NCBI GenBank assembly: GCA_016432445.1
Contig: CP066689.1
Span: 210,001 to 242,000 of the forward strand
DNA from: Candidatus Saccharimonadota bacterium
Lineage (GTDB): Bacteria; Patescibacteriota; Microgenomatia; UBA1406; GWC2-37-13
DNA: 32,000 nucleotides
Direction: 5' to 3'
Shown here: positions 1,149 through 29,697 of the stretch, piece by piece
Position numbering within the stretch: position 1 is the stretch's first letter
Layout: each line of letters opens with the position of its first letter
Made by a program: the position numbers and the translations under genes
Notes under the pieces: model-generated
Seen by the model: the letters and a program-made list of their open reading frames with translations, nothing else
Told to the model about the DNA's origin: nothing
Databases searched by the model: none

Positions 1149-1445
1149 TTAAAATGGCAATGGACCTAAATTAAATATTACGCCTAGTAATCTTATAACT
1201 AAAAAACTTGAAAGTATCACTACAAATCCTATTATAGCGTAAATAAAAAGCTGTTGAATTTTTTTAAGGTTTTCTGTCTTGCCTTGACTGTTTATGTATA
1301 GGAAACCAGCATAAACAATCATTCCAAAAAAAATAATTCCGCCTCCAATCATTAATACTGGTGTAATGAGATTTAATAATGAAGCAATAGTCCCAAATTT
1401 TGCCGGCTGAAAGGAAGTAGGGTTTATGAATGGCGTTGGACTCAT
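1149..1445 (-). CDS. VirB2/TrbC-like small two-TM protein, paralog 1
   Basis: 98 aa. TM, loop SQGKTENLKKIQ, TM. First gene of a three-gene tandem array. Confidence 0.6.
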   Translation of the reverse strand: MSPTPFINPTSFQPAKFGTIASLLNLITPVLMIGGGIIFFGMIVYAGFLYINSQGKTENLKKIQQLFIYAIIGFVVILSSFLVIRLLGVIFNLGPLPF

Positions 1446-1544
1446 TTTATGAGTGTATTACAATTGCAGTTTGAAGTCAATAATAATACTTCACCCAGAA
1501 CCCAAAACCCAGAACAGTCTTTTTGTTATATAATATTGATTGTT

Positions 1545-2588
1545 ATGTTTAGTCCTTCATTTAGAATTACTAATAAAATTTTAACAAACATATCAAAAAT
1601 TGAGGCGGCGGCTGAGGTAATAAGACATTCTCCTCTTCTTCCTCTTTGGGAGAAACAGTTTAAAGAAGATGCTATTGTCAGATCAGTTTATCATGGAACT
1701 CATATTGAAGGGAATATGCTTGCGAAAGACGAAGCTAAAGATATTCTTTTAGGAAAAGAAGTGATGGGTAGATCCAGAGATATTCAGGAAATTATTAATT
1801 ACAGAAAAGTTATTGAGTTTATTGATGAGGAGGCTAAAAAGAAAATAGAAAAATTTACTGAACCTTTAATAAAAAAAATACATCGTCTTATCGCCAATAA
1901 TGTTTTATCTCAAGAACTAGTAGGGGAGTATAGATTAAAACAGGTAGTTATCCGTAACTCCCAAACTGGAGAAGTGACTTTTCGTCCTCCTCCTCCGGTT
2001 GAGGTACCATTTTTAATGAGAGAGTTTATTTATTGGCTCAATCGCAATGATAAAGATGAACTGCATCCAATTCTTAAAGCAGGTATTGCTCATCATGAAC
2101 TGGTGCGTATTCATCCATTTATTGACGGTAATGGAAGAGTAGCCAGGGCATTGGCCACATTAATTCTTTTTCTCGGAGGTTATGATATCCGCCGTTTTTT
2201 TTCGTTAGAGGAGTATTATGATAGGGATGCGGTGACTTATTATGAAAATCTTGGTAAAGCAACAGCCGGAGATATTACTTCTTGGCTCGAGTATTTTGTT
2301 TATGGAGCAGCTGTTGAGTTTGAAAAAATCAAGGAAAAAATTTTAAAGCTCTCAAAAGATGTAAAATTAAAAGAAAAATTTGGGGGCCAGCAGATTTTTC
2401 TTGGAGAAAGACAGATGCAGATAATTGAGTACTTACAAGAAATTGGTTATCTTCAAAATCAATCGTTTAAAACTTTATTTTCAGATATTTCTGAAGACAC
2501 TGTTTTACGTGATCTTCAGGATTTAATAAAAAAAGGATTAATAAAAAAAGTTGGCAGTACCAAGTCAGCCCGTTATGTAATGGTGTAG
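1545..2588 (+). CDS. Fic-domain protein (AMPylase family) with a C-terminal winged-helix/HTH-like tail
   Basis: Canonical Fic motif HPFIDGNGRVAR, and an upstream IEGN element (GTHIEGN). The C-terminus TVLRDLQDLIKKGLIKKVGSTKSARY looks like a wHTH. The ATG at 1545 is preferred over the ORF start at 1449, which abuts the divergent gene start at 1445. TATAAT at 1529-1534. Confidence 0.8.
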   Translation: MFSPSFRITNKILTNISKIEAAAEVIRHSPLLPLWEKQFKEDAIVRSVYHGTHIEGNMLAKDEAKDILLGKEVMGRSRDIQEIINYRKVIEFIDEEAKKKIEKFTEPLIKKIHRLIANNVLSQELVGEYRLKQVVIRNSQTGEVTFRPPPPVEVPFLMREFIYWLNRNDKDELHPILKAGIAHHELVRIHPFIDGNGRVARALATLILFLGGYDIRRFFSLEEYYDRDAVTYYENLGKATAGDITSWLEYFVYGAAVEFEKIKEKILKLSKDVKLKEKFGGQQIFLGERQMQIIEYLQEIGYLQNQSFKTLFSDISEDTVLRDLQDLIKKGLIKKVGSTKSARYVMV

Positions 2589-13547: not shown

Positions 13548-16500
13548 ATGGTAAATACGCCTGTGGCCGAAAGATCAACAGCTGGGATAAGAGAAGGCGT
13601 GGTGGATATAAAAATCCCCCTGGCAGAAGTTTTGGGGCCAAAAAATGAAGCAGAATTGCTAAAGCTTTTGAAAAGTCTAGAAATAGAAGCAAAAAACGCT
13701 AAAGTTGCCGCCAAACAAGAACAAAATAAAAAAAATAATGTTATTTCAATTAATAAAGGAGAAGAAAATAAGGGAGATGAAAAAAGTCTTAAGTTAGTAG
13801 AAAGTTCAGTTAAGCAAATTATTATTGCCTGCAATAATAATCCCAATCTTATTCCATCAAATTTGTCCGAAGCTAATCGTCATATGCTTGGTAATTTGAT
13901 GTTTCGGTTAAGAAACGTAGATCAGATTAATCCATCAACTTCTCCTTACATTTATGAGATTATCCAAAAGGCCATGAATAATCAGGCCAATCCATTGGAG
14001 ATATTATCAAAAGATGATTTGAAGTTTTTAGCGGCAGCTGATGAATATCTTCATCGACAAATACAAGATGTCATGACTGCTGCGGCCAGCAGAGCCGGTA
14101 TTGATCAAAAGACAATAGACCATTTTAAAACTGAGACAGTGCCTCCTAAAGTAACTGTTGATTCAGTAATTAATAGTCGTTTCGAACAAGAAGAGGGTAG
14201 TGCCGAATGGCTTCAGCGTCAGGAAAGAGGGATAAGTGATTATTATGATCTAAAAGAACCAAAGGAGGTACGTCTGTTAACAGCATTGTATTCAAATGAA
14301 GGTTTTGGCAAGTATATAGCTGAGACTATTAGGCAAACCATCAGTGAAGTTGGTGAAGCAGATAGAGCTTTATTGGGTAGAACTGTTAGTAAAAAAATCG
14401 AAGAGGACATGGTGCTTCTTTTCAGTAAAGTTTTCCGTAAAGCTGATGAATCAATGCCTCACGAGTTTTGGGATGAGATCGTTAAAGAAGGTTTTTATTC
14501 TTCAATTGAGATGACTTTTCACAATATGAAAAATGAGATCATCAAAAGAGGCGAGTACATGGAAAAATTGATGGCAAATCTTAAATATAATAATCAGCCT
14601 TTACCGACAGAGTTAGATGATTTAACAAAAATAGATTTTTATAGACGTTTCTCAGTTGAAGAATATCAGCCTCAAGATATAAAACGGAAAGATGGTACGA
14701 TTAAAACAGATTATGTAAAAAGAGTAGTTCCTTCGCCTGGATTTCAAAAAAGCAAAGTAAACGAGTTCACAAGAGCGCTTCAGGTTCTTATAGATCAGGA
14801 AGCAGATTTTAGAAAATATGGTCATAATGTAAGAGCTTTATTTTATAAACCAGGAGGTGAGGGAGGCTTCTGGAACTCTTTAGCACAATATGCTAATGAA
14901 TTTCCAGCTGTAGATCTTGACTCAATGACTTTTTTGCCAGATAGTGATATTTTTATGAGTGCGGCTCGTCTTTATACAAAATATTTAGAGGAGGATTTCG
15001 CGGTAAAAGACTGGGTTCATGATGCCAATATGTTTGCTAATGGCTTTCAAAGTACTAGAACTACCATTGAAGAAAATATTTTAGCAACCTTAAAAAGACA
15101 GTATGGAAAAGATATTAAAACAGAAGAATGGAGATTAAGAAGAGCCATGAATATGGGTGTGGCTATAGCCCGGGGAATCTTGATGACTGAGCCTGAGATT
15201 GCCGCCTGGGCTCTTCCTAGCATGAAGCGGGCTAAAGGTATGGCTCCAACTTTCGTTAGCTATTATCTTAATGACAATACGGCTTTAAGCACTCTTAATC
15301 CTCTTCATCATTTTTTAAGATGGCAGGCAGACGTAATCTTACAGCATAATGTGGCTTTTTTCCCGGTTGACGGGCCGACACCCAAGTTTACTGAAAAAGC
15401 TGATCACACTAAGTTGTGGGACTTAGCAGAAAAATATAGAGAGACTTTTTATGACGGTGGAAATGTTCTTAGTAAGGAAACTTTAGGCCGTAGGATTTTT
15501 TTGGAGGTTCTGCCAAATTTTGGAAAGGTAGGCAGTATTTTTACCCGTGCCGGCTGGAGAAATGAGAATGCCATTGATGGTTGGCTTGTTCACGATGGTA
15601 ATAAAACGAAGTTAGATTATCTTAAGTCATGGAAATCTTTAGAAAACATTGGTTTTGAACCTTTGTACTCTTTTGCCACTGCTATTGATGATAATCTTAA
15701 GAGCGCTTTAACTAATCCGGAATCAATGCTGGATATGGAAGCTATTGAAAAAGGAGTGGAGGAGGAAATTACCAAAGGTAAATATCAAAGACGGGAAAAA
15801 GATCAAAAAATTGAGGAGGCAGTTGAAGCTAAAAAAAAGGAGATAACTGAAAAAATAGCGGAAAGAGAAAAAATTTTTAAATACATATTTAATAAATATA
15901 TCCTTGATCCTTCTCAAAGACATCTTGATACCTTAAATTTGGATGTTCCTGATCCAGCTTATGAAGCTGAGGTTGCCAAACAAAGGGTAATCGCCGAGCA
16001 AACAGTAGATGGAAAGATTAAACAAGGAGATCAGTTTGTTAAGGACGACCGTGAAAATGAGATTATTAAAGAAACATATAGTCGTATCCTTTATAAAGGA
16101 TTAGCTGGAGTATTACGTGACCGTATGCCTGCAAAATTTCTCAGGATAGACCGTGATCGTAACTCGGTTGATGGGGAAAGCCGTTGGAAAAAAGTAAGAA
16201 ATGCTTTAATAGGTAAGACTGGATGGCCGGCAAAAGGTGTTAACGCAATGCAAGAGATGGCTATTCCATATGATCAGGCTATGAAAGATTTAGCTTTGGT
16301 TGAAACTCAACTTAGAGTGCATACTTCAGAAAAAATGAAAAAACATCTAGAGCAATATACTAATAATCCTTTAAGTTATGAGTTACATAGCGCTAAAATT
16401 TATGATTACATTCTTGATGATCGAACGATTGAGGAAGTTTTAAATGAGAATCTAGGAGATGAAACTGAGATTACTGCTGCAGAGAAGACTGCCCGTATAA

Positions 16501-17399
16501 AACGTGCCAAAGATGTTTTAAGATTAACCAATGAATTATATTTACATAATGAAAATTTTAAAGAAGTTGAAGGAATAAAATTAAATGGTCAACCAGTTCA
16601 TAAAAGTTTTCTTGATACGTTTGCTGACCAGATGATGGATAAATCGAAACATTTTCCTTTTGCCTTAGCTACTGACGAAGTGGATACTTACTTTTTAGCT
16701 TATAGGGCAGCCGGTCCCAGCATTATAAGAAGAGCTTTGGGTGATACTTCGCAAGTTGAGCAAGTAGTGTTGAAAGAAACTATTAATTATCTTGGTCTTT
16801 TTTCAAACTTAGCAATTACACCAAGCGATGAAAATTTTCATAAATTAGGAGCTCCGCTTAAAAAAATTTGGGACACAATGAATAGTATTCATGGTACAGA
16901 AATAGCCAATGAGCTAGTACACCATTTAGCCGCTTTAGCTCCGGCTTACTTTAAAACAGATACAGACGCCCGTTTGCTTTGGATGAAACTGGCGAGAGTT
17001 GGGACATATAAGTCAGTAGCGGCCAAGATAGCCGGTAGAAAATTAGGGATTTGGGAATGGGATGTTGAAAAAGGCGATAAATGGGCAATGACTTTATCAG
17101 ATTTAGGGATTCAGCCAAAAGAACCTTATCAGAGTGGTAAAGCTCCTTATAAAAAAGAAGATGTTAAAATACGTATTCCTTTTACTAACAGGAAAATTAA
17201 GATAGGCGAAAAAAAAACTCTTCGAAAACCGGATTTTAAATACTCAATTAAGAAGTTTAGAGAAGATTTTGGTGCAACAGGAAAACATATTGCTGCAGAA
17301 CTATTTATGAAGTGGGGTCCGATATTAATTTTTTTCCTGTTGTATCAGTTTATTACTAAGGCGTTTAAAGAGGCAACCGGTGAGGGTCAAAAAGGATAA
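13548..17399 (+). CDS. 1283-aa hypothetical protein with a single C-terminal TM helix (orphan)
   Basis: Long uninterrupted ORF with a charged coiled-coil-like stretch (EAIEKGVEEEITKGKYQRREKDQKIEEAVEAKKKEITEKIAEREK) and a C-terminal WGPILIFFLLYQFIT helix. I found no Walker A and no catalytic motif. Confidence 0.7.
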   Translation: MVNTPVAERSTAGIREGVVDIKIPLAEVLGPKNEAELLKLLKSLEIEAKNAKVAAKQEQNKKNNVISINKGEENKGDEKSLKLVESSVKQIIIACNNNPNLIPSNLSEANRHMLGNLMFRLRNVDQINPSTSPYIYEIIQKAMNNQANPLEILSKDDLKFLAAADEYLHRQIQDVMTAAASRAGIDQKTIDHFKTETVPPKVTVDSVINSRFEQEEGSAEWLQRQERGISDYYDLKEPKEVRLLTALYSNEGFGKYIAETIRQTISEVGEADRALLGRTVSKKIEEDMVLLFSKVFRKADESMPHEFWDEIVKEGFYSSIEMTFHNMKNEIIKRGEYMEKLMANLKYNNQPLPTELDDLTKIDFYRRFSVEEYQPQDIKRKDGTIKTDYVKRVVPSPGFQKSKVNEFTRALQVLIDQEADFRKYGHNVRALFYKPGGEGGFWNSLAQYANEFPAVDLDSMTFLPDSDIFMSAARLYTKYLEEDFAVKDWVHDANMFANGFQSTRTTIEENILATLKRQYGKDIKTEEWRLRRAMNMGVAIARGILMTEPEIAAWALPSMKRAKGMAPTFVSYYLNDNTALSTLNPLHHFLRWQADVILQHNVAFFPVDGPTPKFTEKADHTKLWDLAEKYRETFYDGGNVLSKETLGRRIFLEVLPNFGKVGSIFTRAGWRNENAIDGWLVHDGNKTKLDYLKSWKSLENIGFEPLYSFATAIDDNLKSALTNPESMLDMEAIEKGVEEEITKGKYQRREKDQKIEEAVEAKKKEITEKIAEREKIFKYIFNKYILDPSQRHLDTLNLDVPDPAYEAEVAKQRVIAEQTVDGKIKQGDQFVKDDRENEIIKETYSRILYKGLAGVLRDRMPAKFLRIDRDRNSVDGESRWKKVRNALIGKTGWPAKGVNAMQEMAIPYDQAMKDLALVETQLRVHTSEKMKKHLEQYTNNPLSYELHSAKIYDYILDDRTIEEVLNENLGDETEITAAEKTARIKRAKDVLRLTNELYLHNENFKEVEGIKLNGQPVHKSFLDTFADQMMDKSKHFPFALATDEVDTYFLAYRAAGPSIIRRALGDTSQVEQVVLKETINYLGLFSNLAITPSDENFHKLGAPLKKIWDTMNSIHGTEIANELVHHLAALAPAYFKTDTDARLLWMKLARVGTYKSVAAKIAGRKLGIWEWDVEKGDKWAMTLSDLGIQPKEPYQSGKAPYKKEDVKIRIPFTNRKIKIGEKKTLRKPDFKYSIKKFREDFGATGKHIAAELFMKWGPILIFFLLYQFITKAFKEATGEGQKG

Positions 17400-17439: not shown

Positions 17440-18216
17440 ATGAAAAAAATTATTTTCCTTTGCCTCTTCTTATTATTAACAGCTTCTTTTTTAATTTTCT
17501 CTCCAAGCAAAATATATGCCTTGGGTTTGTCTAATAATGCAGCAGAGAATATGTCAGGAATAAGCTGCGGTATTCCTGATTCATCTATTAACAGATGTTG
17601 TGCTCCTTTGTCATTTAAAGTTGATCTTAGTTTTGATAATAAATTTTTAGATGTTCCTTTAACTATATTTCGAGCCCCTCTTGAGTTTTTAGGCAATGGA
17701 ATTGTTATGGGGTTAATTGATATTTACGGTAAGGTTGAGAGATCAATAACAAAGACTAATGGATGCATTAAAGGTATCCCAAGTACAGAGAATCCGGCTG
17801 ATCCAAACTGTATTTGTAGCGATGCTAATTCCTCATCTTTAAAATCCATTTCTTATTTATGTGAGAAAATAGTTTCTCCAGATGAGAAAAAGCAGTGTAA
17901 AGCCTGTATTATTGGCGGTACTGCCAATACAAAAGCAGGTATCTGGACAGCAATAGGTTGTGTTCGGGGTGACTTAAGTTCATTTATTCAAGACACTGTG
18001 CTTAGCTGGGGTTTAAGATTGGCCGGTTTAATTGCTCTGCTTTGTATTATTTATTCGGCTTTTAGACTACAGGTTTCAAGGGGTAACCCTGAGGCTATTA
18101 AAAAAGCTCAGGAAATGCTTACTTCCTGCATAATGGGATTACTGCTTATTATCTTTTCAGTTTTTATATTAAGAATAATCGGAGTTGATATCTTAAGAAT
18201 CCCGGGTTTCGGTTAA
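17440..18216 (+). CDS. Secreted Cys-rich domain fused to a VirB2/TrbC-like two-TM pilin module
   Basis: Signal peptide MKKIIFLCLFLLLTASFLIFSPSKIYA. About 10 Cys in residues 40-175. The C-terminus is TM, SRGNPEAIKKAQ, TM, matching the pilin-like paralogs. Confidence 0.65.
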   Translation: MKKIIFLCLFLLLTASFLIFSPSKIYALGLSNNAAENMSGISCGIPDSSINRCCAPLSFKVDLSFDNKFLDVPLTIFRAPLEFLGNGIVMGLIDIYGKVERSITKTNGCIKGIPSTENPADPNCICSDANSSSLKSISYLCEKIVSPDEKKQCKACIIGGTANTKAGIWTAIGCVRGDLSSFIQDTVLSWGLRLAGLIALLCIIYSAFRLQVSRGNPEAIKKAQEMLTSCIMGLLLIIFSVFILRIIGVDILRIPGFG

Positions 18217-18239: not shown

Positions 18240-18283
18240 AGGATTAGGATGTATTCTTTTGAGGATGAGGATGTATTCCTTTG
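18240..18283. repeat. 22-nt tandem duplication straddling the stop codon of the VirB6-like gene
   Basis: AGGATTAGGATGTATTCTTTTG / AGGATGAGGATGTATTCCTTTG (2 mismatches). Confidence 0.7.
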
Positions 18284-19959
18284 ACACTTTCATCAAACCC
18301 TGGTAAGAACTTTAAGAATTTGCCTAATCCGGCTGTATTAGCACCGTAAACTATGGATGAGTATTGATGAAGTATGCCCATAGCTCCGCCTGTCCCAGTA
18401 CCGGCTCCGCCAAAGAAGACTCCAAGGTTAAGACCCAAAGGCAAGCCTTTGACACCCATAAACTCTTTTATTAGCTTAACAAGTTCAGGTACCATAAAAA
18501 TAATAGCCATCCCGAGAACTATGGCAAAATTTTTAGGATTAAGGCCATATAAAAATGGAGGTTGCCAAACATTGTAGTTGGAATTAATCGTAACATTTAT
18601 TAATACCCGCGCCGTAACCATAATAAGAATGACAGCGGGAAAAACAATAATCTCGGCCAGCAAATTTTTAAACCAATAAGAAAAACCGCCTTTTCCGGGA
18701 ACCGCTTCAAAAAGCATAAAAATGGGCGCAAATATAATCATAAGAATGATTTTAAGATAAGTCATAAGCAACAAAAAGAAAATCCTAAATAATAGCAAAA
18801 GCATAGTAAAAAATATAAGTAATCCTAGTATCCAGCCGGCGCCGTAAACAAGACTCACGATTAAAGCTAAACCAACACCTATTGCTAAAAGAGGTATGCC
18901 AAATATAATACCTCTAGGTAAAGAACCAAGAGAGTTACCTAAAACATCTAAATTATTTAATATTGATGGTAAACCAACAAAGTCATTGAGCTTCATATAG
19001 TCCTTTAGTAAAGGAAAGCCTAAGAAAAGCAAACCTAAAAGTCTAACGCCATCATTTATCCATGATGGCAAAATCTCAGCCAGCCCCTGTCCTAACTGAA
19101 ATAAATGAATAAATCCTCCAAATATAGGAATTCCTGTCTCCCAGCTTTTAATGGGAAACATACTGTCCCAGATAGTGCCAAACTGAGCCGCTGTGTATTG
19201 GTTTTGCAGTTGAGACTCAATTAAAGTAGGGTCGGCTTTGGCTAAAACAGAGATGCCCAAAACAATAATTACATACATAAAATCAATTAAAAATCCAGCT
19301 ATGGCAAAGGAAAAAGTAATGTAAATAAGGGATAAAACAATTTTGGGAAGAGCGCTTTCAACCGAGATTACAGTTTGAGGGTTAAGTTTCATCCTAAACA
19401 TAACCATAAAACCGATAAGTATAATTACCACGACTAATATTAAATAAGCCACATCACGCATAACTTTCCAGATGTTCATAAGCGGTCTTATAGCCGAGAA
19501 ACCAACGCCTTCAGCCGCAAAAGCTTGAGGCACTATCCCGGCATTCTGCAATCCCGAGTATGTCCAGTAAACGCCTGAGGCGGGAGGATTGGTAAAGGGA
19601 AAAGTAATTAACCCGCTGGCTTTTCCCAACAAACTATTTTTAAAATTTTTATCAGCATTACCTTGATTATCATTGCAATTTTCTCCTAGGAGCTTACACA
19701 AAAGCGCTTGATGGATTTGAGATAAAGCTTTAGTTTCTTTTTTTTCGGCAAGTTTAGGGTCATTAAATGATTCATAAAGTTTTTGCCGCTCAGTTTTTAA
19801 AGGGTTAACAGAAGCTGTTTTTTTATCACTTGTTAGGTATAAAAAAAGATTGATAACAGCAAACAAAACAATAACAACAATGGTTATCTTTTGAAGTGTA
19901 ATTAAGCCTTTTTTTATCCCGCCGAGCATAACATTCATTGTATACTTCTTCGCTTTCAA
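18244..19959 (-). CDS. Polytopic membrane protein, VirB6/TrbL-like (tentative)
   Basis: About 570 aa: an N-terminal TM, a roughly 100-aa loop, many further hydrophobic segments and a Gly-rich tail (FFGGAGTGTGGAMG). The ORF start at 19959 is TTG. ATG alternatives are 19938 and 19929; the latter lies 7 nt downstream of TACAAT (19937-19942, minus strand). The call rests on topology and context, not on a motif. Confidence 0.45.
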   Translation of the reverse strand: MKAKKYTMNVMLGGIKKGLITLQKITIVVIVLFAVINLFLYLTSDKKTASVNPLKTERQKLYESFNDPKLAEKKETKALSQIHQALLCKLLGENCNDNQGNADKNFKNSLLGKASGLITFPFTNPPASGVYWTYSGLQNAGIVPQAFAAEGVGFSAIRPLMNIWKVMRDVAYLILVVVIILIGFMVMFRMKLNPQTVISVESALPKIVLSLIYITFSFAIAGFLIDFMYVIIVLGISVLAKADPTLIESQLQNQYTAAQFGTIWDSMFPIKSWETGIPIFGGFIHLFQLGQGLAEILPSWINDGVRLLGLLFLGFPLLKDYMKLNDFVGLPSILNNLDVLGNSLGSLPRGIIFGIPLLAIGVGLALIVSLVYGAGWILGLLIFFTMLLLLFRIFFLLLMTYLKIILMIIFAPIFMLFEAVPGKGGFSYWFKNLLAEIIVFPAVILIMVTARVLINVTINSNYNVWQPPFLYGLNPKNFAIVLGMAIIFMVPELVKLIKEFMGVKGLPLGLNLGVFFGGAGTGTGGAMGILHQYSSIVYGANTAGLGKFLKFLPGFDESVKGIHPHPQKNTS

Positions 19960-20003: not shown

Positions 20004-20783
20004 ATGAATATCTTAAAAAGATTTTTAATCTTATCTTTTTTTATTATTTTTCTTTTTTGGGGTTTTCTATCGTCAACTTATGCCGAAAATGATAATTCTT
20101 CATCAGGTTCAACAATAAAAGAGTTTCTTAAAATCTTTTTTCCTTCTTCCTCAGGTTTTCAAAATAACATCTCTCAGTTATCAGCTGATTCTCCAAATAA
20201 CAATCAATTACAACCTCAAGAGGCAATCTCTGTTAAGAGTTTAAGGGAACTTTTCTCAGAAATTGAAAAAAAAGTTCAGATACCGGCAAGAATCATTGAA
20301 GGAGTCATGCTAGTTGAGTCGCCAGGTTTACTTAATCCAGAGTCACCTAATTTTTTAACTGATGAGCAAGTGCAGGAATATTCCCGACCTGGTGCAGTAA
20401 TTCCTGGGTGCCGCGCTAATGCCTGCTCAGCCATGGGGCCAATGCAGATGACAACAGGGATTGACAACAGCGGTTCAAGCAGCTGTTCAGACTGCGGTCT
20501 AAACGTATGTCCTAATGCTTGGGCAGGTTTTGGAGACAGTGTTAATACTTTTGGTGGCTACTCTCATTTATCTAATCCTTGCAATCTTCGCGATAACATC
20601 TATGCAGCCGCGGCTAAACTGAAAGATAATAGCGGTGCCGGCTCAGGAGTGTGGACAAAAGAACAGGTTTACCGTGCCGCTGAAAGATATTATGGTTCAT
20701 GCAGTGATAAATACCGTTATGAACGGTTGGATAACAAAACATATTGCGAGTTTTTGTGGTGGTATTATACCGGCCAGGATTAA
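20004..20783 (+). CDS. Secreted lytic transglycosylase-like (SLT/VirB1-like) Cys-rich protein
   Basis: Signal peptide MNILKRFLILSFFIIFLFWGFLSSTYA. SLT-like motifs VMLVES (Glu-Ser) and AMGPMQMT (GxMQ), then IYAAAAKL and AAERYYG. The ATG at 20004 is preferred over 19938. Extended -10 TGgTACAAT at 19986-19994. Confidence 0.55.
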   Translation: MNILKRFLILSFFIIFLFWGFLSSTYAENDNSSSGSTIKEFLKIFFPSSSGFQNNISQLSADSPNNNQLQPQEAISVKSLRELFSEIEKKVQIPARIIEGVMLVESPGLLNPESPNFLTDEQVQEYSRPGAVIPGCRANACSAMGPMQMTTGIDNSGSSSCSDCGLNVCPNAWAGFGDSVNTFGGYSHLSNPCNLRDNIYAAAAKLKDNSGAGSGVWTKEQVYRAAERYYGSCSDKYRYERLDNKTYCEFLWWYYTGQD

Positions 20784-20786
20784 TTT

Positions 20787-21260
20787 ATGGAAAAAAACCG
20801 TATTTATATAATTATTTTTGTCCTTCTTTTTATCCTGGTGATTTTATTGGGTACGGTTAATCTGTTTTCTTCAACTAAGAAAAATGAACAGTCTTTAATT
20901 TCAATTTCAAGTCCGGTTACTCCAACCACCAACTTAGTTTTTCCATCAAATTTTCCCTATGTTTCACCGGCTGTTACATCTGAATTAGCGCCATCAACAA
21001 CAATTTCTTCCACAAAAGTGATAACGGCATTAGAGCTCGCATATCCTTTAAAATATGAAAACTTAATTATTGATTATATTCAGATTAGAAAGCAGATAAT
21101 TATTTTTTATCCAAAAGAAAAACAGCAAGCTGAAACAGTATTTAAGCAATTTTTAAACCAGTATCAAACAAATGAGCAAGAATTTGCAGGTATGAAAATT
21201 GATTACATTGGTTTAACCCGTGATCCTAACGAACCGGTTCCCGGATCTTTACTTCAATAA
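20787..21260 (+). CDS. N-terminally anchored small protein with a shared C-terminal ~60-aa domain
   Basis: N-terminal TM IYIIIFVLLFILVILLGTV and an S/T/P linker. The C-terminal LAYPLKYENLIIDY..IIIFYPKEK..FKQFL..KIDY aligns with the C-termini of 22530..22997 and 21254..22537. Confidence 0.6.
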   Translation: MEKNRIYIIIFVLLFILVILLGTVNLFSSTKKNEQSLISISSPVTPTTNLVFPSNFPYVSPAVTSELAPSTTISSTKVITALELAYPLKYENLIIDYIQIRKQIIIFYPKEKQQAETVFKQFLNQYQTNEQEFAGMKIDYIGLTRDPNEPVPGSLLQ

Positions 21261-22537
21261 TAGATTATTTGCAAGTGTCTTATCCAGGATGGATCTTCAA
21301 CTCCGTAGGACAATAAAAAATTTTGAAACTCTAGGTTTCCTTCATTTGATTGAGCACTTGATATTTCAACAATAACTTTATTGATACTAATATCATTCCT
21401 TATACTAAAATACTGGCCACTATAGGGTGTTTGTTGAGCTATCATTTGTCCAACTAATTGTTCTTTGCGGATAAACTCTTCTTCTTCTTTATTGGTAATT
21501 AAACCGCTATGTTCTGAAGGATAAATATTGTTAGAGCGTTCATTTTTTAAAACACTGATAATATAGCTTATTTGTTCAAGAACTTGAGGGTGAACCAGAA
21601 CTGCTCCGTGTCCATCAAAGCCGCCTTTAATCATGGTTCTTTGTTCTTTTAGTTTGGCTGATTCATCTGACTCTTTGGCATCAAGCATGCTATTTATCCG
21701 CTGATATTCTTCAAGCTTTTCATCAACATATTTTGATATGGGAAACTCTACCCATTGTTCCATGGAAAATAGAGTTTGCATCCTTTTACCGCCTATGACC
21801 TGAGTTGAGGCGAGCGCATAAGCATATTTTGGCGCAACAACTAAATCATCAAATGAAGCAAATGATATGTATCTCACTCCTTGGCTGACTAGATCATTTA
21901 CTTCATTTTCTACTCTAGAATCAATATCTTCTTCCTGAGCTCTTTCTAAATAAAATTGACCTGCTTCGCCGCCTATTATGGGGGCAAGCCAAGTGTCGGT
22001 GGGAGTAGGAATAATATCAGCTCCTTTTAAAGCTCCATCTAAGGATATGACGGCAGCCGTTTTGCCGGCATGTTTTTTAGCCAACTCATGAGCTAAATAT
22101 CCTCCCTGGCTGTGGCCGATAATGACAAACTTATCTTCAGGAAAGTTTTCTTCGTACCAATTCATTAATTTATCCATGTTCTCAACGCTTGTATATGGAT
22201 GTTGAGTTGAGTCTTGATGATCATAATGTTCACCAAGCCGAGGGTTATTGTCATTTACGCGGTAAGAGATATCTAAAACATCATATTCGTCAAATCCGGC
22301 CGAGTAAATTGCTTGTTCTTTTAAATATTTAAAACTTTCCTGATCATCAGCCGTTGCCCCAAGACCGGGGATAATTATAAATTTTAAACAAGGTTCACTA
22401 TTTCTTCTTTTCCATGTCCCGTCCCAATGCTCAACCCATAATTCACGTGTCCATTCTTTAGGTAAAAAAGCTGCGGCAGCTGTTAATCCTGCGGCTTGTA
22501 AAAATTGTCGGCGGGATAACCGCCATTGTTCACTCAT
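21254..22537 (-). CDS. Tat-exported alpha/beta hydrolase (lipase/esterase-like) with the shared C-terminal domain
   Basis: Twin-arginine signal LSRRQFLQAAGLTAAAAFL. Nucleophile elbow IIGHSQGG. C-terminal PYSGQYFSI..EGNLEFQNFL..WIRHLQIIYY. Confidence 0.7.
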   Translation of the reverse strand: MSEQWRLSRRQFLQAAGLTAAAAFLPKEWTRELWVEHWDGTWKRRNSEPCLKFIIIPGLGATADDQESFKYLKEQAIYSAGFDEYDVLDISYRVNDNNPRLGEHYDHQDSTQHPYTSVENMDKLMNWYEENFPEDKFVIIGHSQGGYLAHELAKKHAGKTAAVISLDGALKGADIIPTPTDTWLAPIIGGEAGQFYLERAQEEDIDSRVENEVNDLVSQGVRYISFASFDDLVVAPKYAYALASTQVIGGKRMQTLFSMEQWVEFPISKYVDEKLEEYQRINSMLDAKESDESAKLKEQRTMIKGGFDGHGAVLVHPQVLEQISYIISVLKNERSNNIYPSEHSGLITNKEEEEFIRKEQLVGQMIAQQTPYSGQYFSIRNDISINKVIVEISSAQSNEGNLEFQNFLLSYGVEDPSWIRHLQIIYY

Positions 22538-22997
22538 AGTTGATTACGAGCAAGTTTTTTCTTATCCATAATCTGTCTTGAATGCCATTTTTTTTCAAAA
22601 AAGCGTCAAACTCTTCATTGCCTTCTTTTTCTTTTGACTTAGGGATAGTGACTACATACTGAGCTTTATTGTAATCATTAATCATCTTGAAGTTTTTTCC
22701 TGAGTAAGGCAGAAGATTAAGCAACCGGCCAACCGCAGCTTCTTTTTCAACAATTGGAGACTCAGCTTTGTTTATTTCTTGAGCGCTTTTTTTATAATCC
22801 TGGTTTACAAAAGGAGCGTCAAAAGATAAGGGAGTTGGGGATAGTTTTGATGGAATAAAATCGGTAGGTATAACTGATTTACTATCATAAGAGTTTGATT
22901 TTTTAACATTTTGTTTTTGCAGTAAAGTAGTTACAATTATCAAGAAAATTGTCACGATTAAAAAAACAACAACTATGATTTTAATTTTATAATTCAT
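22530..22997 (-). CDS. N-terminally anchored small protein with the shared C-terminal domain
   Basis: N-terminal TM, then LPYSGKNFKMINDY..VVTIPKSKEKEGNEEFDAFL..WIRKNLLVINY. The start overlaps the upstream stop (ATGA), and there is an 8-nt overlap with the downstream gene. Confidence 0.6.
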   Translation of the reverse strand: MNYKIKIIVVVFLIVTIFLIIVTTLLQKQNVKKSNSYDSKSVIPTDFIPSKLSPTPLSFDAPFVNQDYKKSAQEINKAESPIVEKEAAVGRLLNLLPYSGKNFKMINDYNKAQYVVTIPKSKEKEGNEEFDAFLKKNGIQDRLWIRKNLLVINYE

Positions 22998-23788
22998 ATT
23001 TTTTTAATTGGGAAGGCATAAAACCAGGTAAAAGCTGAGACGCTTTTGATAATATTTTCCGGTTTTTCATCATTGCCGTCAGCATAACTGCAGTTATTTG
23101 GGTCTCTAATGCTAACACTTGAAGAATCAATATCGACATTATCAACCGTGAATGCGTGATCGATTCTTCGTGGCGTACTGCAGCTGGCGCAGGGGAAATC
23201 TTTAGAAGAGGCAATAATAAGATAACCCTGATCAAGATAATTTTTAGCTTGTTTAAGATCTAAAATTCCATTGAAAGCAAGGTTTTGTCCCACATGCATT
23301 CCTAATCCTTCAAACCAAGAACTGGAAAGAGCGTTTAGCAAATAGCTGGCATTATCTCCGCAGGTTCTCCATCCATTTTGCTGAAAAATTAAATCTACTT
23401 GAGGTGGAGAGAGTCCTATGCCAAAAGTAGATAAGATCATTGATAGTGAGGTTGGAGCACATCCGGCCGCGCCTAAATTACATATACTTTTCCACATAGT
23501 ATTACCTTGACAATAAAAAACAAAGCCGTTGCGTTTTTCTTTATTGTAAATAGAGGGATTAGGAGGATTAGAAGGATTAGGCAGTTGATCTTCGGGAATG
23601 TTTGAGGTTGATATTTCTCCTTTCGGAAAAAAAATTTTTAAAAATTCTTTAATAGTTTCTGCTCCATTACTCTTGCTTGATTCGCTGTCTGGTTGAGCAC
23701 GAACTGTAGTAGAGAAAGAAACTAATACTATTAATAAAATTAATATTATTTTACTCATATCGTTGACAAGAGATTTTTTTTTAGACAT
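22994..23788 (-). CDS. Secreted papain-like cysteine peptidase (Peptidase_C39-like / cell-wall hydrolase candidate)
   Basis: Signal peptide ending in TVRA. YCQGNTMW..GAAGCAPTSLSMIL (nucleophile Cys context). Later IDHAFTV (His) and IRDPN. Confidence 0.5.
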   Translation of the reverse strand: MSKKKSLVNDMSKIILILLIVLVSFSTTVRAQPDSESSKSNGAETIKEFLKIFFPKGEISTSNIPEDQLPNPSNPPNPSIYNKEKRNGFVFYCQGNTMWKSICNLGAAGCAPTSLSMILSTFGIGLSPPQVDLIFQQNGWRTCGDNASYLLNALSSSWFEGLGMHVGQNLAFNGILDLKQAKNYLDQGYLIIASSKDFPCASCSTPRRIDHAFTVDNVDIDSSSVSIRDPNNCSYADGNDEKPENIIKSVSAFTWFYAFPIKKI

Positions 23789-23797: not shown

Positions 23798-26743
23798 ATG
23801 GCCGGCTTTTTTGATTTTATAAAAAAACCTAACTCACCTGCAACTCCAAATCAGCAGCCTGCCACTATGAGTCAGCCTCCTCAAGTTCCTTCACCGGTAA
23901 CTAATTCTCCTGCCTTGCCTCAAACTCCAACGCAGGAAGCTAACATGATGCTTCATTTTGACACTCATCAAAGCCTTCGGCAAGCTCCACCCTCCGTCAA
24001 GACTTCCGCGTCCGTTAAAACTCCGGCGGACAAGTCGGATGACAAGCCTGATGACAAACTTTCAAAGCCATCAATTAATCCTTTATCTCAAAATTTAAGC
24101 GGAGAAAAAAGAGTCAATATTGATGTTATGACCCATTTAACTCAACGTTCAAACCGCGCTTTTTTATCGGCTAACAGTAAAGCCAAAGAATTAAAAAATA
24201 GTTTTATTGACAGTGAACATATTCTTCACGGGTTATTGTCTGATGGAGAGATTTATAAATTGTTTATTGATCTTAAAATCCAGCCTCAGTTTATTGAGGA
24301 TGAACTTAACAAACTTTATCGTCGGGAGAATAACAATGCTTCTCCTCAAATGTCTCCAAGAGTTAAAAAAATTATTGACGATTCATTAGTAATTGCAAGA
24401 AAACTAGGTTTTGAGTTCATTTCACCTGAACACATTTTACTGGGTTTATATGAGGAAGGTGAAGGGGTAGGCGCTAGAGTATTAGTTAAATTAGGATTAA
24501 AAAAAGAAGATATTAATAAAAAGATATTGGGGAAGAAAGAAGGGTTGGAAGCTGATCAAAAAGAAGCTCAAAATAAGAAAAATGTTTTGGATCAATATAC
24601 TATAGATTTAACTGCAAAAGCCTCACAAGGGCTTCTGGATCCGGTTGTCGAACGGTCGGAGGTAATTGAGAGAGTGATCCATATTTTATCCAGAAGAACT
24701 AAAAACAATCCGGCCTTGGTTGGCGAGGCAGGCGTTGGTAAAACTGCTATTGTTGAAGGATTAGCGCAGAAAATAGTGTCTAAACAAGTACCTGATCCAT
24801 TGCTTAATAAGAAAATTTTACAGCTTGATCTTATGAGTATTTTGGCAGGCGCCTCTCATAGAGGTGAGTTTGAAGAAAGGATGAAAGATTTGATAGAACA
24901 AATTAAAGCCAGTCAGGGTCAGCTTCTCCTTTTTATTGATGAGATTCATAATATTGTAGGTGCCGGTTCATCTGGCGAAGGGTCACTTGATGCTTCAAAT
25001 TTTTTAAAACCAGCTCTGGCTCGTGGTGAAATACAGCTTATTGGAGCAACGACTTTAACAGAGTATCGGAAATATATTGAAAAAGATCCGGCTCTTGAGC
25101 GCCGTTTTCAACCAGTACTTGTGCCCGAACCCACCGAAGAGCAAGCTGTGAAGATGCTTAAAAGCATTAAAGATAAATATGAAGCCTTTCATAAAGTAAA
25201 AATTCCAGATGATGCTGTTAACGCGGCGGTTCGTTACTCTAAACGTTATATTGGTGACAGGTTTTTACCTGATAAAGCAGTGGATTTGATTGATGAGGCG
25301 GCCTCTGCTGTTAGGCTTCCATTAATTTCTTTGCCTGAAGAAATTAAGTCGATTGAAACCCGAGTAGCAGAATTGACTCAAGAGGCGGCGGAAGCTGAAA
25401 AAGCCTCTGATAAAGTTAAAGCAAGGATAATCCGTTCAAAAATTGATGATATCCAAGCTGATCTTAAAGAAAAGAAAGATCAATATAATGTAAAAAAAGC
25501 CCAAACAACAACCGAAATAACTGAAAATATTATTAAAGATATTGTTTCCCGCTGGACTGGAATTCCGGTTTCCAAGATTACAGGCAATGAAAAAGAAAAA
25601 TTAGCTTCGCTTGAAAGCATTATGCATAAAAGACTTATCGATCAGGAGACAGCTGTATCAGCTGTGGCCGCGGCAGTAAGACGCGGAAGAGCCGGCTTGA
25701 AATCAAATCAAAGACCAATTGGAAGTTTTGTTTTCTTAGGACCAACTGGTGTTGGTAAAACAGAACTGGCTAAAACTTTGGCTGATATTTTATTTGGTCA
25801 GGAAGAGGCCATGGTTAGATTTGATATGACTGAGTATATGGAAAAGCATGAAGTAGCTAAACTTTTGGGAGCTCCTCCAGGATATGTGGGTTATGAGGAG
25901 GGCGGGAAGCTAACTGAAGCTGTACGTCGCAGACCTTACTCGGTTGTCCTTTTTGATGAGGTAGAAAAAGCCCATCCGGATATTTTTAATATTCTTTTGC
26001 AGATTCTTGATGATGGACGATTAACTGATAATAAAGGTCATACAATTTCTTTTAAAAATACTGTTGTTATTTGCACTTCAAACATTGGGACGCAGGTAAT
26101 TCAGGATGAGCTTTTGAAGGAAAAGGATCTGGAGATTAAAGAAGAGACAGAAGAGGAAATTAAAAGAGATAAAGAAAAATATGAAGGAATTAAAGGAAAA
26201 GTAATGGCTGAATTAAAGAAATTTTTCAAACCAGAACTTATTAACCGTTTTGATGAGATAATTGTATTTGAACCTTTAAAATTTGTGCACATGATGGAAA
26301 TTGTAAAACTGCAGTTAAAAAGTGTAGGTAAGCTTCTGGAAGATCAAGATATTGGTTTTTCCTATACAGAGGCTGCGGTTAAAGAAATAGTTAGATCAGG
26401 ATTTGATCCTATTTATGGAGCGCGTCCATTAAAAAGAGCGATCCAAAAATTATTGGAAAATCCAGTTTCTACTTTGATAATTGAAGGCAAAATTAAAGCA
26501 GGTAATGTTTTGCATACTGATTTTGATGGAGATAACTTCATTTTTAATGTAGAACAAACAGAAATGCTGCCAGCAGATCAAGTCAAAAAAAATGAAATCA
26601 AAGAATTTGTGTGTAATGTTTGTCATCAAGAGTTTAAAACAGAGGTAAACCAGTCATCAACCGTAATTTGTCCTTATTGTACAGCCAAAAATATTAATGA
26701 AAAGAAAGCAGAGGAAAAAAAAGAAATAAATGTATTAAAATAA
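23798..26743 (+). CDS. Two-ring Clp/Hsp100 AAA+ ATPase (ClpC/ClpB-like) with N-terminal P/Q/S/T-rich extension and C-terminal zinc ribbon
   Basis: Clp_N repeats ([17 protein letters not shown]). Walker A GEAGVGKT and GPTGVGKT. Walker B LFIDEIH and [20 protein letters not shown]. Short middle domain of about 65 aa. C-terminal [16 protein letters not shown]. Confidence 0.85.
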
Positions 26744-27161: not shown

Positions 27162-27836
27162 ATGACGGATTTTCCCATACAGTCTTCAATATTTATTTTA
27201 CAGATAGCGGTACTTTATTTTGTTTCAAGAATAACAATTCAGGAAATTTTTCGTTTCTTTTACTTTTTTACTTCAAATCGAAAAATTATTTTTAGCTTGA
27301 TGTCTTTAGTGCTTCTTCCCGGAACAGCTCTTCACGAAATAGCTCATTTTATCATGGCGACTATTCTTATGATGAGAGTGAAAGAAGTAAAAATAATTCC
27401 TGAATGGGAAGGAAATTCTATTAAATTAGGTAGAGTACTTTATGAAAAAAAAGATGCGGTTAGAGGAATTATTGTAGGTATTGCTCCTATATTGGCTGGT
27501 ATTTTCTTTTTTTGGTTTGCAGCTCAGATAGGCCGCGATATTAACAATAATCTTGGATTAAATATCTTATTAGTTTATCTAATATTTATTATATCTAGCA
27601 CTATGTTTTCCTCAAAACAAGATCTTATAGATATTATTTTTACGATTCCTTTCTTCTTGGTTATTATAGGAGGCGCTTATATATTGAATATTCCTATTAT
27701 TAAGATAATACAGAATTTTTTACCAAAGTTGGATTCAGGTTTAGTTATTATCAACCGTTTTCTATTTTATTCTCTTGCTATTCATATAGTGATAATAGTA
27801 TCATTTAAAAGTTTCAAAAGAGTGTTAAAGAAATGA
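27162..27836 (+). CDS. Polytopic membrane protein with HExxH motif (putative zincin-like membrane metallopeptidase, DUF3267-like)
   Basis: LLPGTALHEIAHFIMA plus at least four further hydrophobic segments. Its stop overlaps the start of the next gene (ATGA). Confidence 0.5.
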   Translation: MTDFPIQSSIFILQIAVLYFVSRITIQEIFRFFYFFTSNRKIIFSLMSLVLLPGTALHEIAHFIMATILMMRVKEVKIIPEWEGNSIKLGRVLYEKKDAVRGIIVGIAPILAGIFFFWFAAQIGRDINNNLGLNILLVYLIFIISSTMFSSKQDLIDIIFTIPFFLVIIGGAYILNIPIIKIIQNFLPKLDSGLVIINRFLFYSLAIHIVIIVSFKSFKRVLKK

Positions 27837-28180
27837 ATAATATAGTAGCTCAAGGTTTAAAAATAGTTCCTTCAGTGGGTGCCGGAACACCTCAGCCTGC
27901 TTCATTGACATTAACTGGGCCGTTAAAGGGTATCAATACTATTGGTGATGTAGTCAACAGAATAAGCCAGTTTTTAATACCGCTGGCCGCAGTTATTTTA
28001 TTTATTGTTTTAGTTTATGGAGGTTATCAGTTTTTATTATCTCAAGGCAATCCTGAGAAAGTTAAATCTGCAAGGGCTATACTTACTGCCGGAGTAATAG
28101 GATTTATTCTGCTTATAATCTCATTTACTTTAGTAAAGCTTATATCTTTTATTTTAGGGCTGGATACAGGCATAATATAG
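27833..28180 (+). CDS. VirB2/TrbC-like small two-TM protein, paralog 4
   Basis: TM, SQGNPEKVKSAR, TM. 115 aa. Confidence 0.6.
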   Translation: MNNIVAQGLKIVPSVGAGTPQPASLTLTGPLKGINTIGDVVNRISQFLIPLAAVILFIVLVYGGYQFLLSQGNPEKVKSARAILTAGVIGFILLIISFTLVKLISFILGLDTGII

Positions 28181-28371: not shown

Positions 28372-29697
28372 ATGTTTTGGAGAAAAGAACCACCAATAGT
28401 TCTCTCGATCGGAGGCAGTTTAATAGTCCCCAATGGAGGCATAGATACGGAATTTTTAAGGAAACTTAATGCTTTTGTTAGAGAACAAGTAAAAAAAGGT
28501 AAACGTTTCTTTTTAGTTGCTGGAGGAGGAAAGATTGCTCGTCATTATCGTGATGCTGGAAAAGATGTGATTGGAGAAATGACTAATGAGGATTTGGATT
28601 GGTTGGCGATACATGTTACTCGCGTAAATGCCCATCTTTTAAGAACAATTTTTCAAGATATTGCTCATCCCCGTATCATTGAAAATTATGATAAAAGATT
28701 AATTAACTGGAAAGAACCGGTAGTAATCGGCGCTGGCTGGAAACCTGGATGGTCAACTGATTATGACGCAGTCCTTTTAGCTAAAGATTATGGTGCTAAT
28801 CTAATTGTAAATTTATCCAATATCGATTGGATTTACGATAAAGATCCAAATAAATATAAAGACGCTAAAATTATAAAAAAGCTTACATGGGAAGAAATGG
28901 AAGATTTAGTAGGTAATAAATGGATTCCAGGTTTAAATGCTCCTTTTGATCCTATAGCTACTCAGCTTGCAAAAAAATTAAATTTAACAGTGATTGTTAC
29001 CAATGGTAAAGATTTTGATAATTTAGAAAAAATCATAGAAGGAGATGTCTTTAAAGGTACTGTCATTTTACCTTATCATATTGATGCCAGTTTTTATGAT
29101 AGAGAGTATTACACAGGTCAAAAAGGCGCTTATCGTATAGCCAGAATGGGGTCAATGACTGGAAGAATTATTCATGCTATCTCTAATTTTTATCGGGCTC
29201 TCTTAATTAAAATATTTTTAAACCCAAAAAACTGTCTTGATATCGGTTGTGGTACAGGTAGATTAGTTAAATACTTAAGAAAATTGGGAATAGATGCTTA
29301 TGGAGTAGAGTTGTCAAAGGAAGTTTTAGAATTAGCGGATAAACAAGTTAAGCCTTTTTTAAAACTAGGTCACATTACTGATTTGCCATATCAGGATAAT
29401 CAGTTTGATTTAGTAACGACTTTTGATGTTTTGGAACATATTGAGCGGGGTAAAATAAAGGAGGCAATTGAGGAAAGCGTTAGAGTTTCCAGAAAATATA
29501 TTCTTCACAAAATTTATACTAAAGAAAATTTATGGATAAGTTTGATGCATGCTAAAGATTTTTCCCATATATCAGTTTTTACTAAAGATTATTGGAAAAA
29601 ACTATTTAGTGAAATTAGCCATGTATCGGTATTAAAAAATTCTTTTTTCCGACTGCCTTCATTTATTGAAACAATATTTCTTCTTAAGAAAGATTAA
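28372..29697 (+). CDS. pyrH: Fusion protein: archaeal-type UMP kinase (N) + class I SAM-dependent methyltransferase (C)
   Basis: Residues 1-233: VLSIGGSLIVP..FLVAGGGKIAR..GWKPGWSTDYDA..KDPNKYKDAK, as I recall for archaeal PyrH. Residues about 280-441: motif I CLDIGCGTGRLV and DLVTTFDVLEHI. Confidence 0.75.
   Translation: MFWRKEPPIVLSIGGSLIVPNGGIDTEFLRKLNAFVREQVKKGKRFFLVAGGGKIARHYRDAGKDVIGEMTNEDLDWLAIHVTRVNAHLLRTIFQDIAHPRIIENYDKRLINWKEPVVIGAGWKPGWSTDYDAVLLAKDYGANLIVNLSNIDWIYDKDPNKYKDAKIIKKLTWEEMEDLVGNKWIPGLNAPFDPIATQLAKKLNLTVIVTNGKDFDNLEKIIEGDVFKGTVILPYHIDASFYDREYYTGQKGAYRIARMGSMTGRIIHAISNFYRALLIKIFLNPKNCLDIGCGTGRLVKYLRKLGIDAYGVELSKEVLELADKQVKPFLKLGHITDLPYQDNQFDLVTTFDVLEHIERGKIKEAIEESVRVSRKYILHKIYTKENLWISLMHAKDFSHISVFTKDYWKKLFSEISHVSVLKNSFFRLPSFIETIFLLKKD

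Follow-up and report, generated by a model that had tools for sequence, protein, structure and literature searches.

In Gram-positive bacteria, VirB8-like proteins (PrgL, PrgD, TraM, and TraH) and VirB1-like hydrolases carrying SLT and CHAP domains (PrgK and TraG) form the "cell-wall complex" of type IV secretion systems (T4SSs) (PMC12857230). The Patescibacterial T4SS, the first one shown to be essential for its own bearer, in Southlakia epibionticum (PMC10633639, PMC12857230), is poorly resolved: VirB8 homologues are almost absent, and it has been suggested that another protein may fill their role; VirB1 is scarce, as is VirB6 in Microgenomatia (PMC12102498). Here, we analyzed a 32,000-nucleotide (nt) stretch of a Candidatus Saccharimonadota genome (GTDB lineage Patescibacteriota; Microgenomatia; contig CP066689.1, positions 210,001 to 242,000; hereafter the window), in which five adjacent open reading frames (ORFs) encode secreted enzymes and small membrane-anchored proteins (Table 1). 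By locus tag (HYW86_01195/01205), the source is a metagenome-assembled genome of Candidatus Roizmanbacteria, which belong to the Microgenomates group of Patescibacteria. We found that the C-terminal domain of a 155-amino-acid (aa) anchored protein, also fused to the neighboring hydrolase, is a previously undescribed domain. It defines a conserved family that is confined to the ultrasmall Patescibacteria (the candidate phyla radiation) and is a Patescibacteria-wide accessory family of a T4SS-like locus. The published account of Patescibacterial T4SSs mentions neither this family nor C39-like peptidases (PMC12102498).

The domain family and the VirB8-like proteins have in common an N-terminal anchor, a small extracytoplasmic domain, and a place in a T4SS operon beside wall hydrolases. 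In contrast to PrgK and TraG, the lytic activities are split here between two proteins, one C39-like and one possibly lysozyme-like, and each is paired with an anchored protein of its own. Moreover, VirB8-like domains are NTF2-like and span ~120 to 140 aa, whereas this domain consists of a helix and a ~60-aa beta-beta-alpha-beta core. VirB8, TraM, and PrgL gave no match in the Foldseek search of the PDB or in the search of PDB sequences. The predicted model, a long helix, a three- to four-stranded sheet, and one helix, does not show the NTF2-like fold of the VirB8-like group, and the comparison is an analogy only.

Two small exported proteins of S. epibionticum, SEML1_0004 and SEML1_0005, lie at the end of its T4SS cluster and were both scored essential by transposon sequencing (PMC10633639). 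Compared by position and annotation, they resemble the family in directly following SEML1_0006 (lysozyme-like plus cysteine proteinase) and SEML1_0007 and in being convergent with recF/dnaN. SEML1_0005 is annotated with an Ig-like domain and a small "OmpATb N-terminal-like" domain (PMC10633639), a combination comparable to that of the family members P0082 and P0128, which join a Big_5 domain to the domain described here. However, both proteins are larger (211 to 249 aa) and carry other annotated domains than the family.

A conserved anchored domain of Patescibacteria

Judged by sequence, the C termini of the 155-aa protein and of the hydrolase are clearly homologous, with 39% identity over 80 aa (E = 2e-13). 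In a scan of all six-frame ORFs of the window, the family profile scored the 155-aa protein at E = 1.7e-31, the hydrolase at 1.4e-23, and the 157-aa anchored protein encoded on the other strand at 5.9e-4, the next value being 0.36; the fused hydrolase copy reached E = 8.7e-29 in the exhaustive profile search. The conserved unit comprises ~78 to 80 aa, that is, the second half of a long helix followed by the ~60-aa core, and is longer than the ~60 aa proposed in an earlier note on this DNA. The family signature is LPYxG...F...D(Y)...EGNxEF..FLK.NG..DRSWI.

The same note had aligned three C termini, of which the third, that of the 157-aa protein, proved to be only a distant relative. BLASTP between the 157-aa and 155-aa proteins gave E = 0.011. 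Against a hidden Markov model (HMM) of 148 family sequences, the 157-aa protein scored 13.3 bits, which 0 of 1000 shuffled sequences attained; two of its three orthologues scored alike and one (L001) gave noise. An hhalign comparison of six members of the 157-aa protein's own family with the domain family returned P = 5.6e-5 and a probability of 66%. The PYSG, EGN, and WIR residues that had been listed as conserved are absent from the 157-aa protein, which instead ends in an invariant motif particular to its own family, YIGLT(R/K)DPNEP. Thus, it is best described as a remote paralogue, outside strict family membership.

To size the family, a six-copy profile was searched exhaustively with HMMER against 1.84 billion cluster representatives (50% identity), yielding 368 clusters at E ≤ 1e-3 and 192 at E ≤ 1e-10, with named members in Roizmanbacteria and Levybacteria. 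Among the best 146 members, 142 are no longer than 190 aa, 134 have an N-terminal hydrophobic anchor, and 141 carry the domain at the extreme C terminus. The usual member, of 120 to 165 aa, is built of a membrane anchor, a disordered linker, a long helix, and the beta-beta-alpha-beta core, and this stand-alone anchored form accounts for >95% of members. The domain is also found in cis with other partners: four Roizmanbacteria-type alpha/beta-hydrolases carry it (two further orthologues do not), one M23 peptidase (P0119) ends in it, and in P0082 and P0128 an anchor and a Big_5 domain precede two tandem copies. The earlier note was right that the domain exists both by itself on a membrane anchor and as part of an enzyme, and this extends to M23 and Big_5 fusions. 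The M23 fusion (locus L004, 1941-3002) lies in a GC-richer context and is followed by a gene for an 816-aa protein with a faint Tricorn_N match.

No family member was found in IMG/VR, and a scan of genome contigs with a strict pattern from the family alignment returned one locus, identical to L002. A phage or mobile origin was rejected on the IMG/VR result and on synteny with housekeeping genes, which argues for a chromosomal core locus.

The AlphaFold2 model of the 155-aa protein, built from a 141-sequence alignment, has a pLDDT (predicted local distance difference test) of 89.8 overall and ~98 in the domain. It predicts a transmembrane helix (residues 3 to 28), a disordered Pro/Ser/Thr-rich linker (29 to 65), a helix (66 to 95), and the core (97 to 154), with strands at 104 to 108 and 113 to 118, a helix at 120 to 136, and a last strand at 150 to 154. 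The conserved polar residues (EGN, E, K.NG, and DRSW) are placed on the helix and the last loop. For the 157-aa protein, modeled from two sequences only, confidence is moderate (core pLDDT 80 to 89), and the predicted strands (88 to 90, 93 to 98, 103 to 108, and 137 to 142) and helix (112 to 125) follow the same beta-beta-alpha-beta order without the long preceding helix.

The domain has no match in Pfam, NCBIfam, PHROGs, or PADLOC; a profile search of PDB sequences returned only transmembrane-helix noise (FliL, E = 0.26), and Foldseek against the PDB and BFVD gave nothing under E = 0.03. Explanation by a known family was therefore rejected, and the novelty claimed for the domain holds. Nor was a standard peptidoglycan-binding domain recognized: LysM, SPOR, PG_binding_1-3, and SH3b had no Pfam match at E ≤ 1 in 12 family members. 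The weak Foldseek neighbors, none of them significant, are small two-layer alpha/beta domains; the top BFVD match is a phage "type 4 fimbrial biogenesis protein" (E = 0.04, probability 0.60, nonsignificant).

Two other groups of envelope proteins have a comparable build. PilN, PilO, and GspM of type IV pili and type II secretion systems also combine a transmembrane helix, a long helix, and a small alpha/beta domain, but the PilN and PilO heads are larger ferredoxin-like repeats and belong to another secretion machine and gene context. The ring-building motifs of EscJ/PrgK/MxiG, FliF, and SpoIIIAG/AH, likewise membrane anchored and part of trans-envelope machines, show the same alpha-beta-beta-alpha-beta order when the preceding helix is counted; the 157-aa paralogue, without that helix, departs from it. 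Foldseek matches to ring-building motifs of type III secretion and flagellar rings were weak and nonsignificant (E = 0.4 to 0.8). With both models they stayed far from significance, as for EscJ (E = 0.6), FliF ring-building motif 3 (E = 0.6), and the Shigella inner-membrane ring (E = 0.44; root mean square deviation, 3.4 Å over 56 columns).

Gene pairing, T4SS neighborhood, and enzyme partners

Mapping the family gene in 10 loci (the window, L001/L002, L003, L006, L008, L009, L011, L012, and L013), we found that it directly follows a C39_2-like gene in all 10 and is often translationally coupled to it; the upstream protein of L009 is called C39-like solely by its alignment to L008. Similarly, the gene of the 157-aa type directly follows that of the Cys-rich "SLT-like" protein in five of five loci. 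The pairing of enzyme and small protein noted in the window thus recurs in every locus examined. In the most distant loci, L008 and L009, the pair forms the last two genes of an operon that encodes, in order, two T4SS_pilin proteins, PrgI (VirB3-like), a TraC-like protein, VirB4, the C39-like protein, and the small protein, and that is convergent with dnaN-dnaA. This arrangement is that of the published origin-proximal, MPF-FATA-like Patescibacterial T4SS (PMC12102498). The earlier note had not recognized this T4SS neighborhood, which is decisive for the interpretation.

The block of the window is syntenic in L001/L002 and L003: leuS, yidC, jag, a gene for a ~1200-aa protein, a pilin-like gene, and one for a ~550-aa polytopic protein are followed by the "SLT-like" and 157-type genes, the convergent hydrolase, 155-type, and C39 genes, and then clpB, two small genes, and a T4SS_pilin gene. 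The convergent layout is found without the hydrolase in L013, where C39 and a 153-aa protein are convergent with the "SLT-like" gene and its downstream neighbor, which encodes a 137-aa protein clearly belonging to the family of the 157-aa protein (E = 1.3e-14 with the HMM of that family). A 157-type gene again follows the "SLT-like" gene in L010, a locus found with a degenerate DNA pattern for YIGLT(R/K)DPNE; a peptide-pattern scan of metagenomes for this family gave nothing. An antitoxin-like and PIN-like gene pair (L010, 1652-2342) lies between the 157-type and polytopic-protein genes, which shows that the block can be interrupted. Further pairs of an enzyme and a small anchored protein flank the C39/family pair of L011 (691-3462), where a 181-aa anchored protein, C39, the family member, a 222-aa secreted protein, and a 156-aa anchored protein follow one another; the tail of the last resembles another beta-beta-alpha-beta head, to which the family HMM gives no score.

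In the window, we identified five T4SS_pilin-type genes or gene parts (three at 404-1445, one at 17440-18216, and one at 27833-28180). Tandem pilin arrays, such as the one at the left end of the window, are reported to be typical of Microgenomatia and Saccharimonadia (PMC12102498). The pilin-like domain at 17440-18216 scores 24.1 bits (T4SS_pilin, E = 3.7e-5), just under the gathering threshold of 26.6, and has an NCBIfam ICE pilin-like match; the gene is syntenic in L001, L003, and L010, whose orthologue (330 aa) is also Cys rich. The polytopic protein encoded at 18244-19959 has homologues only in Roizmanbacteria-type loci (L010 and L013), always beside the "SLT-like"/157 pair, and may be a divergent VirB6-like subunit.

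Two of the three enzyme labels given in the earlier note are well founded. The 264-aa protein, a papain-fold cysteine peptidase, exceeds the cutoff of Peptidase_C39_2 (PF13529; 31.9 bits, cutoff 24) and has the motifs YCQG, GCAPTS, IDHAF, and RDPNN, of which GCAPTS and IDHAF are kept in orthologues. The 427-aa protein passes both Abhydrolase_1 (35.5 bits, cutoff 25.8) and TAT_signal (23.5 bits, cutoff 22.7), as expected of a hydrolase exported by twin-arginine translocation (Tat); its twin-arginine motif is SRRQFLQ and its nucleophile elbow GHSQGG, and the RR motif and GHSQGG are present in P0004 to P0008. The third label, "SLT-like," is without statistical support and is kept here in quotation marks as a name. 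Following a signal peptide and an 11-aa tag, this protein has a conserved C-terminal domain which, in the orthologue alignment, contains an invariant Glu (ESP), GPMQ, six conserved Cys, and CNLRDNIYAAA. Only the ES and G.MQ motifs resemble those of SLT. SLT identity found no support in four tests: the protein had no Pfam match at E ≤ 0.1, one of five orthologues touched SLT_2 (E = 0.15), and PDB sequences gave no match to the single sequence or to the five-orthologue profile.

The tag, TIKEFLKIFFP, lies just past the signal peptides of the "SLT-like" and C39-like proteins and is common to these two unrelated enzymes (BLASTP E = 1e-5), while the domain-fused hydrolase is without it. Its DNA forms the longest inverted repeat of the region (20111-20143 versus 23625-23657; 33 nt, 82% complementary). 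The peptides are identical in 11 of 11 positions and the six nucleotide differences are all silent, which shows that the peptide itself is maintained, beyond the DNA. In four genomes, a small sample with hand-chosen windows, the two tags of one genome are much more alike (mean BLOSUM62 score of 32, 7 of 17 identities) than orthologous tags of different genomes (8 to 9.5, ~3 of 17). Likeness within rather than between genomes, together with the tagless hydrolase, suggests that the tag coevolves with a common binding partner of both enzymes.

In a comparison of three Roizmanbacteria, identity is 38 to 58% for the five genes and 36 to 52% for the other envelope genes of the block, compared with 65 to 80% for yidC, jag, and clpB. 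The free domain is best conserved (53 to 72%), above the enzymes (38 to 58%). Fused copies are 26 to 40% identical among themselves and 30 to 49% to free copies. Concerted evolution of free and fused copies within a genome was rejected, since their identity there (40%) equals the between-genome level.

Possible roles of the domain protein

The constant pairing with the C39-like gene, the position in T4SS operons, the build of anchor, linker, and head, and the fusions in cis to three unrelated partners together lead us to a tentative reading, which we prefer while giving it somewhat less than an even chance: that the domain protein, tethered to the membrane, serves the T4SS-like machinery as a docking or scaffold subunit for its envelope hydrolases. 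In this reading, a small bitopic protein would expose the domain as its extracytoplasmic head and would keep envelope-degrading enzymes in place at the point where the machine passes through the wall. It would be a subunit of a cell-wall complex and would correspond to the bitopic VirB8-like proteins in function but not in descent. The homology, family size, architecture, gene pairing, T4SS neighborhood, and fusions are observed; the physical binding, to the enzymes or among the domain proteins, and the link to secretion are inferred. In Roizmanbacteria, the peptidase/anchor pair would have moved away from virB4; a second, convergent pair, made up of the Cys-rich, possibly lysozyme-like enzyme and the remote anchor paralogue, is present as well; and the Tat-exported hydrolase has gained the domain by fusion and so could join the assembly through domain-domain or domain-partner contacts.

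Several observations weigh against this docking role. An enzyme gene followed by an overlapping gene for a small envelope protein is also the layout of effector-immunity pairs, and the fold, without a significant structural neighbor, hints at no function by itself. Neither virB4 nor virB3 lies in the 32-kb window, so that the T4SS link of this genome rests on the pilin-like genes, on synteny, and on distant relatives, and the M23-fusion locus L004 shows no T4SS genes. The 10 loci examined come from 368 clusters, and most contigs are short.

The same layout could mean that the C39-like protein, the "SLT-like" protein, and the hydrolase are wall- or membrane-degrading effectors directed at the host bacterium and that the small anchored proteins, as their cognate immunity proteins, protect the envelope of the producer. 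Xanthomonadales are known to deliver antibacterial hydrolases through a T4SS and to encode the immunity proteins next to them; in those X-Tfe/X-Tfi pairs, likewise T4SS linked, the gene of a wall-degrading enzyme is followed by that of a small envelope protein. At every locus, the small gene lies immediately downstream with overlapping or abutting start and stop codons; its product is predicted to be extracytoplasmic and membrane tethered, and each enzyme class has its own type of small protein (155-type with C39, 157-type with "SLT-like"). However, the domain is fused to an alpha/beta-hydrolase and an M23 peptidase and stands in tandem behind Big_5, which is unexpected for an inhibitor of a papain fold. 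By the Rosetta-stone argument, fusion to three unrelated partners indicates a domain that works with envelope enzymes and not against one catalytic fold. Moreover, the domain varies less than its enzyme partner, whereas immunity proteins evolve fast, and unlike X-Tfe/X-Tfi it occupies a single-copy, syntenic core-genome position beside housekeeping genes, with no variability of the polymorphic-toxin kind; Pfam immunity families give no match above noise. We thus regard an immunity function as unlikely. The earlier note had left the choice between a binding or adaptor module and an immunity domain; on sequence evidence, the fusions and the recurring pairing would favor the adaptor.

Binding may also be directed at a polymer. 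The domain would then be a new wall- or surface-binding module for peptidoglycan, a teichoic-like polymer, or a host glycan, its free form tethering the membrane to the wall or marking a site and its fused form targeting the enzyme to its substrate. Fusions to M23 and to Big_5 surface domains are typical of wall-binding modules, the long Pro/Ser/Thr-rich linker could let the head reach into the wall, and the conserved polar residues (EGN, E, K.NG, and DRSW) point to a specific site for a ligand; SPOR and LysM have folds of this general two-layer alpha/beta class. Nevertheless, we consider this rather unlikely, because the domain matches none of LysM, SPOR, PG_binding, SH3b, and the other Pfam binding domains, because a generic module is expected on many enzymes and not in one fixed gene position with >95% of members anchored on their own, and because the constant coupling of the free form to the C39-like gene is left unexplained. 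Very unlikely, in our view, is a regulator of autolysins for the cell's own growth and division, in the manner of EnvC or NlpD, with T4SS proximity an incidental outcome of origin-proximal clustering. The housekeeping genes around the locus (yidC, jag, clpB, and leuS) and a window without virB4 would fit such a regulator, as would L012 and L006, where only dnaN/dnaA flank the pair on the sequenced side. However, in L008 and L009 the pair adjoins virB4 and the pilin genes and runs in their direction, pilin-like genes accompany it in Roizmanbacteria-type loci too, and clustering of T4SS genes near the origin is documented for Patescibacteria (PMC12102498).

The docking role could be extended to a more specific one, which we hold to be improbable: that the domain is the missing "VirB8-equivalent" of the Patescibacterial T4SS, an oligomerizing tethered hub that recruits varied lytic enzymes to the epibiont-host contact, either by capture of an N-terminal tag or by direct fusion. 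The peptide TIKEFLKIFFP, coevolving within each genome, would be the address on unrelated enzymes, and the Tat esterase and the M23 peptidase would take the fusion route. If so, these bacteria would breach the envelope of the host with a modular system for docking enzymes.

Because it is conserved, specific to Patescibacteria, undescribed, and locked to a wall-peptidase gene at the operon end, the domain family is a concrete candidate for the missing structural or accessory subunit of this T4SS. The C39-like peptidase, the Cys-rich enzyme, and the esterase form a defined partner set for interaction tests, and the tag provides a second testable handle on how these enzymes are addressed. Should the small proteins be immunity factors instead, the locus would reveal lytic effectors that an epibiont directs at its host. 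In both cases, the result would bear on the way in which ultrasmall bacteria open a host envelope.

Coordinates and other genes of the window

The five ORFs and their junctions are as the earlier note gave them. On the minus strand, the C39-like and 155-aa genes overlap by 4 nt and the 155-aa and hydrolase genes by 8 nt; the ends of the 157-aa and hydrolase genes overlap by 7 nt, tail to tail. An in-frame TTG at 19938 is also open upstream of 20004 on the plus strand, where ATG begins a typical signal peptide. The description of the locus as two mirror-image modules overstates the symmetry of the convergent pairs of enzyme and small protein, the small proteins being only remote paralogues. Promoter and terminator scans gave the same counts as in shuffled sequences.

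Table 1. Positions of the block, its domains and tags, and associated T4SS-type genes in the window
Feature	Position	Strand	Basis
Secreted Cys-rich protein ("SLT-like"), 259 aa	20004-20783	+	ORF list
157-aa N-terminally anchored protein	20787-21260	+	ORF list
427-aa Tat alpha/beta-hydrolase with C-terminal domain copy	21254-22537	-	ORF list, Pfam
155-aa anchored protein, founding family member	22530-22997	-	ORF list, AlphaFold2
264-aa secreted C39_2-like cysteine peptidase	22994-23788	-	ORF list, Pfam
Tag TIKEFLKIFFP, "SLT-like" aa 37-47	20112-20144	+	BLASTP
Tag TIKEFLKIFFP, C39-like aa 45-55	23624-23656	-	BLASTP
Fused domain copy, hydrolase aa 349-427, helix plus beta-beta-alpha-beta	21257-21493	-	Profile, pairwise alignment
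Domain of the 155-aa protein	22533-22802	-	AlphaFold2, profile
Beta-beta-alpha-beta core of the 157-aa protein, ~aa 85-142	21039-21212	+	AlphaFold2
Motif YIGLTRDPNEP of the 157-aa protein	21204-21236	+	Family alignment
Tandem array of three divergent T4SS_pilin (VirB2-like) genes, left end	404-781, 785-1147, 1149-1445	-	Pfam
258-aa protein, long Cys-rich N-terminal part and C-terminal T4SS-pilin-like domain	17440-18216	+	Pfam, NCBIfam
571-aa polytopic membrane protein	18244-19959	-	No family match
T4SS_pilin gene downstream of clpB	27833-28180	+	Pfam PF18895, 34.8 bits; also L001, L002, L013

Other genes of the window have features of their own. The 1283-aa ORF at 13548-17399 (+), always upstream of the pilin-like gene, has no Pfam, NCBIfam, or PHROGs match; its syntenic homologues in L001, L003, and L010 measure 1167 to 1392 aa, and the C-terminal part of the L010 copy includes a hydrophobic segment. 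ClpB (23798-26743, +) bears a ~130-aa low-complexity N-terminal extension and a C-terminal CxxC...CxxC tail resembling a zinc ribbon (CNVCHQEF...CPYC); its L013 orthologue has 1454 aa. Only 9 nt separate the ClpB start from that of the divergent C39-like gene, so that either start call, or both, may be wrong. The gene at 1449-2588 (+) encodes a Fic/DOC protein whose C-terminal part is a DeoR-type helix-turn-helix; an ATP-dependent DNA ligase (2610-4403, +) comes next. At 28372-29697 (+), an amino-acid kinase is fused to a class I S-adenosylmethionine-dependent methyltransferase, and the gene stands beside the T4SS_pilin gene in L001 and L002.

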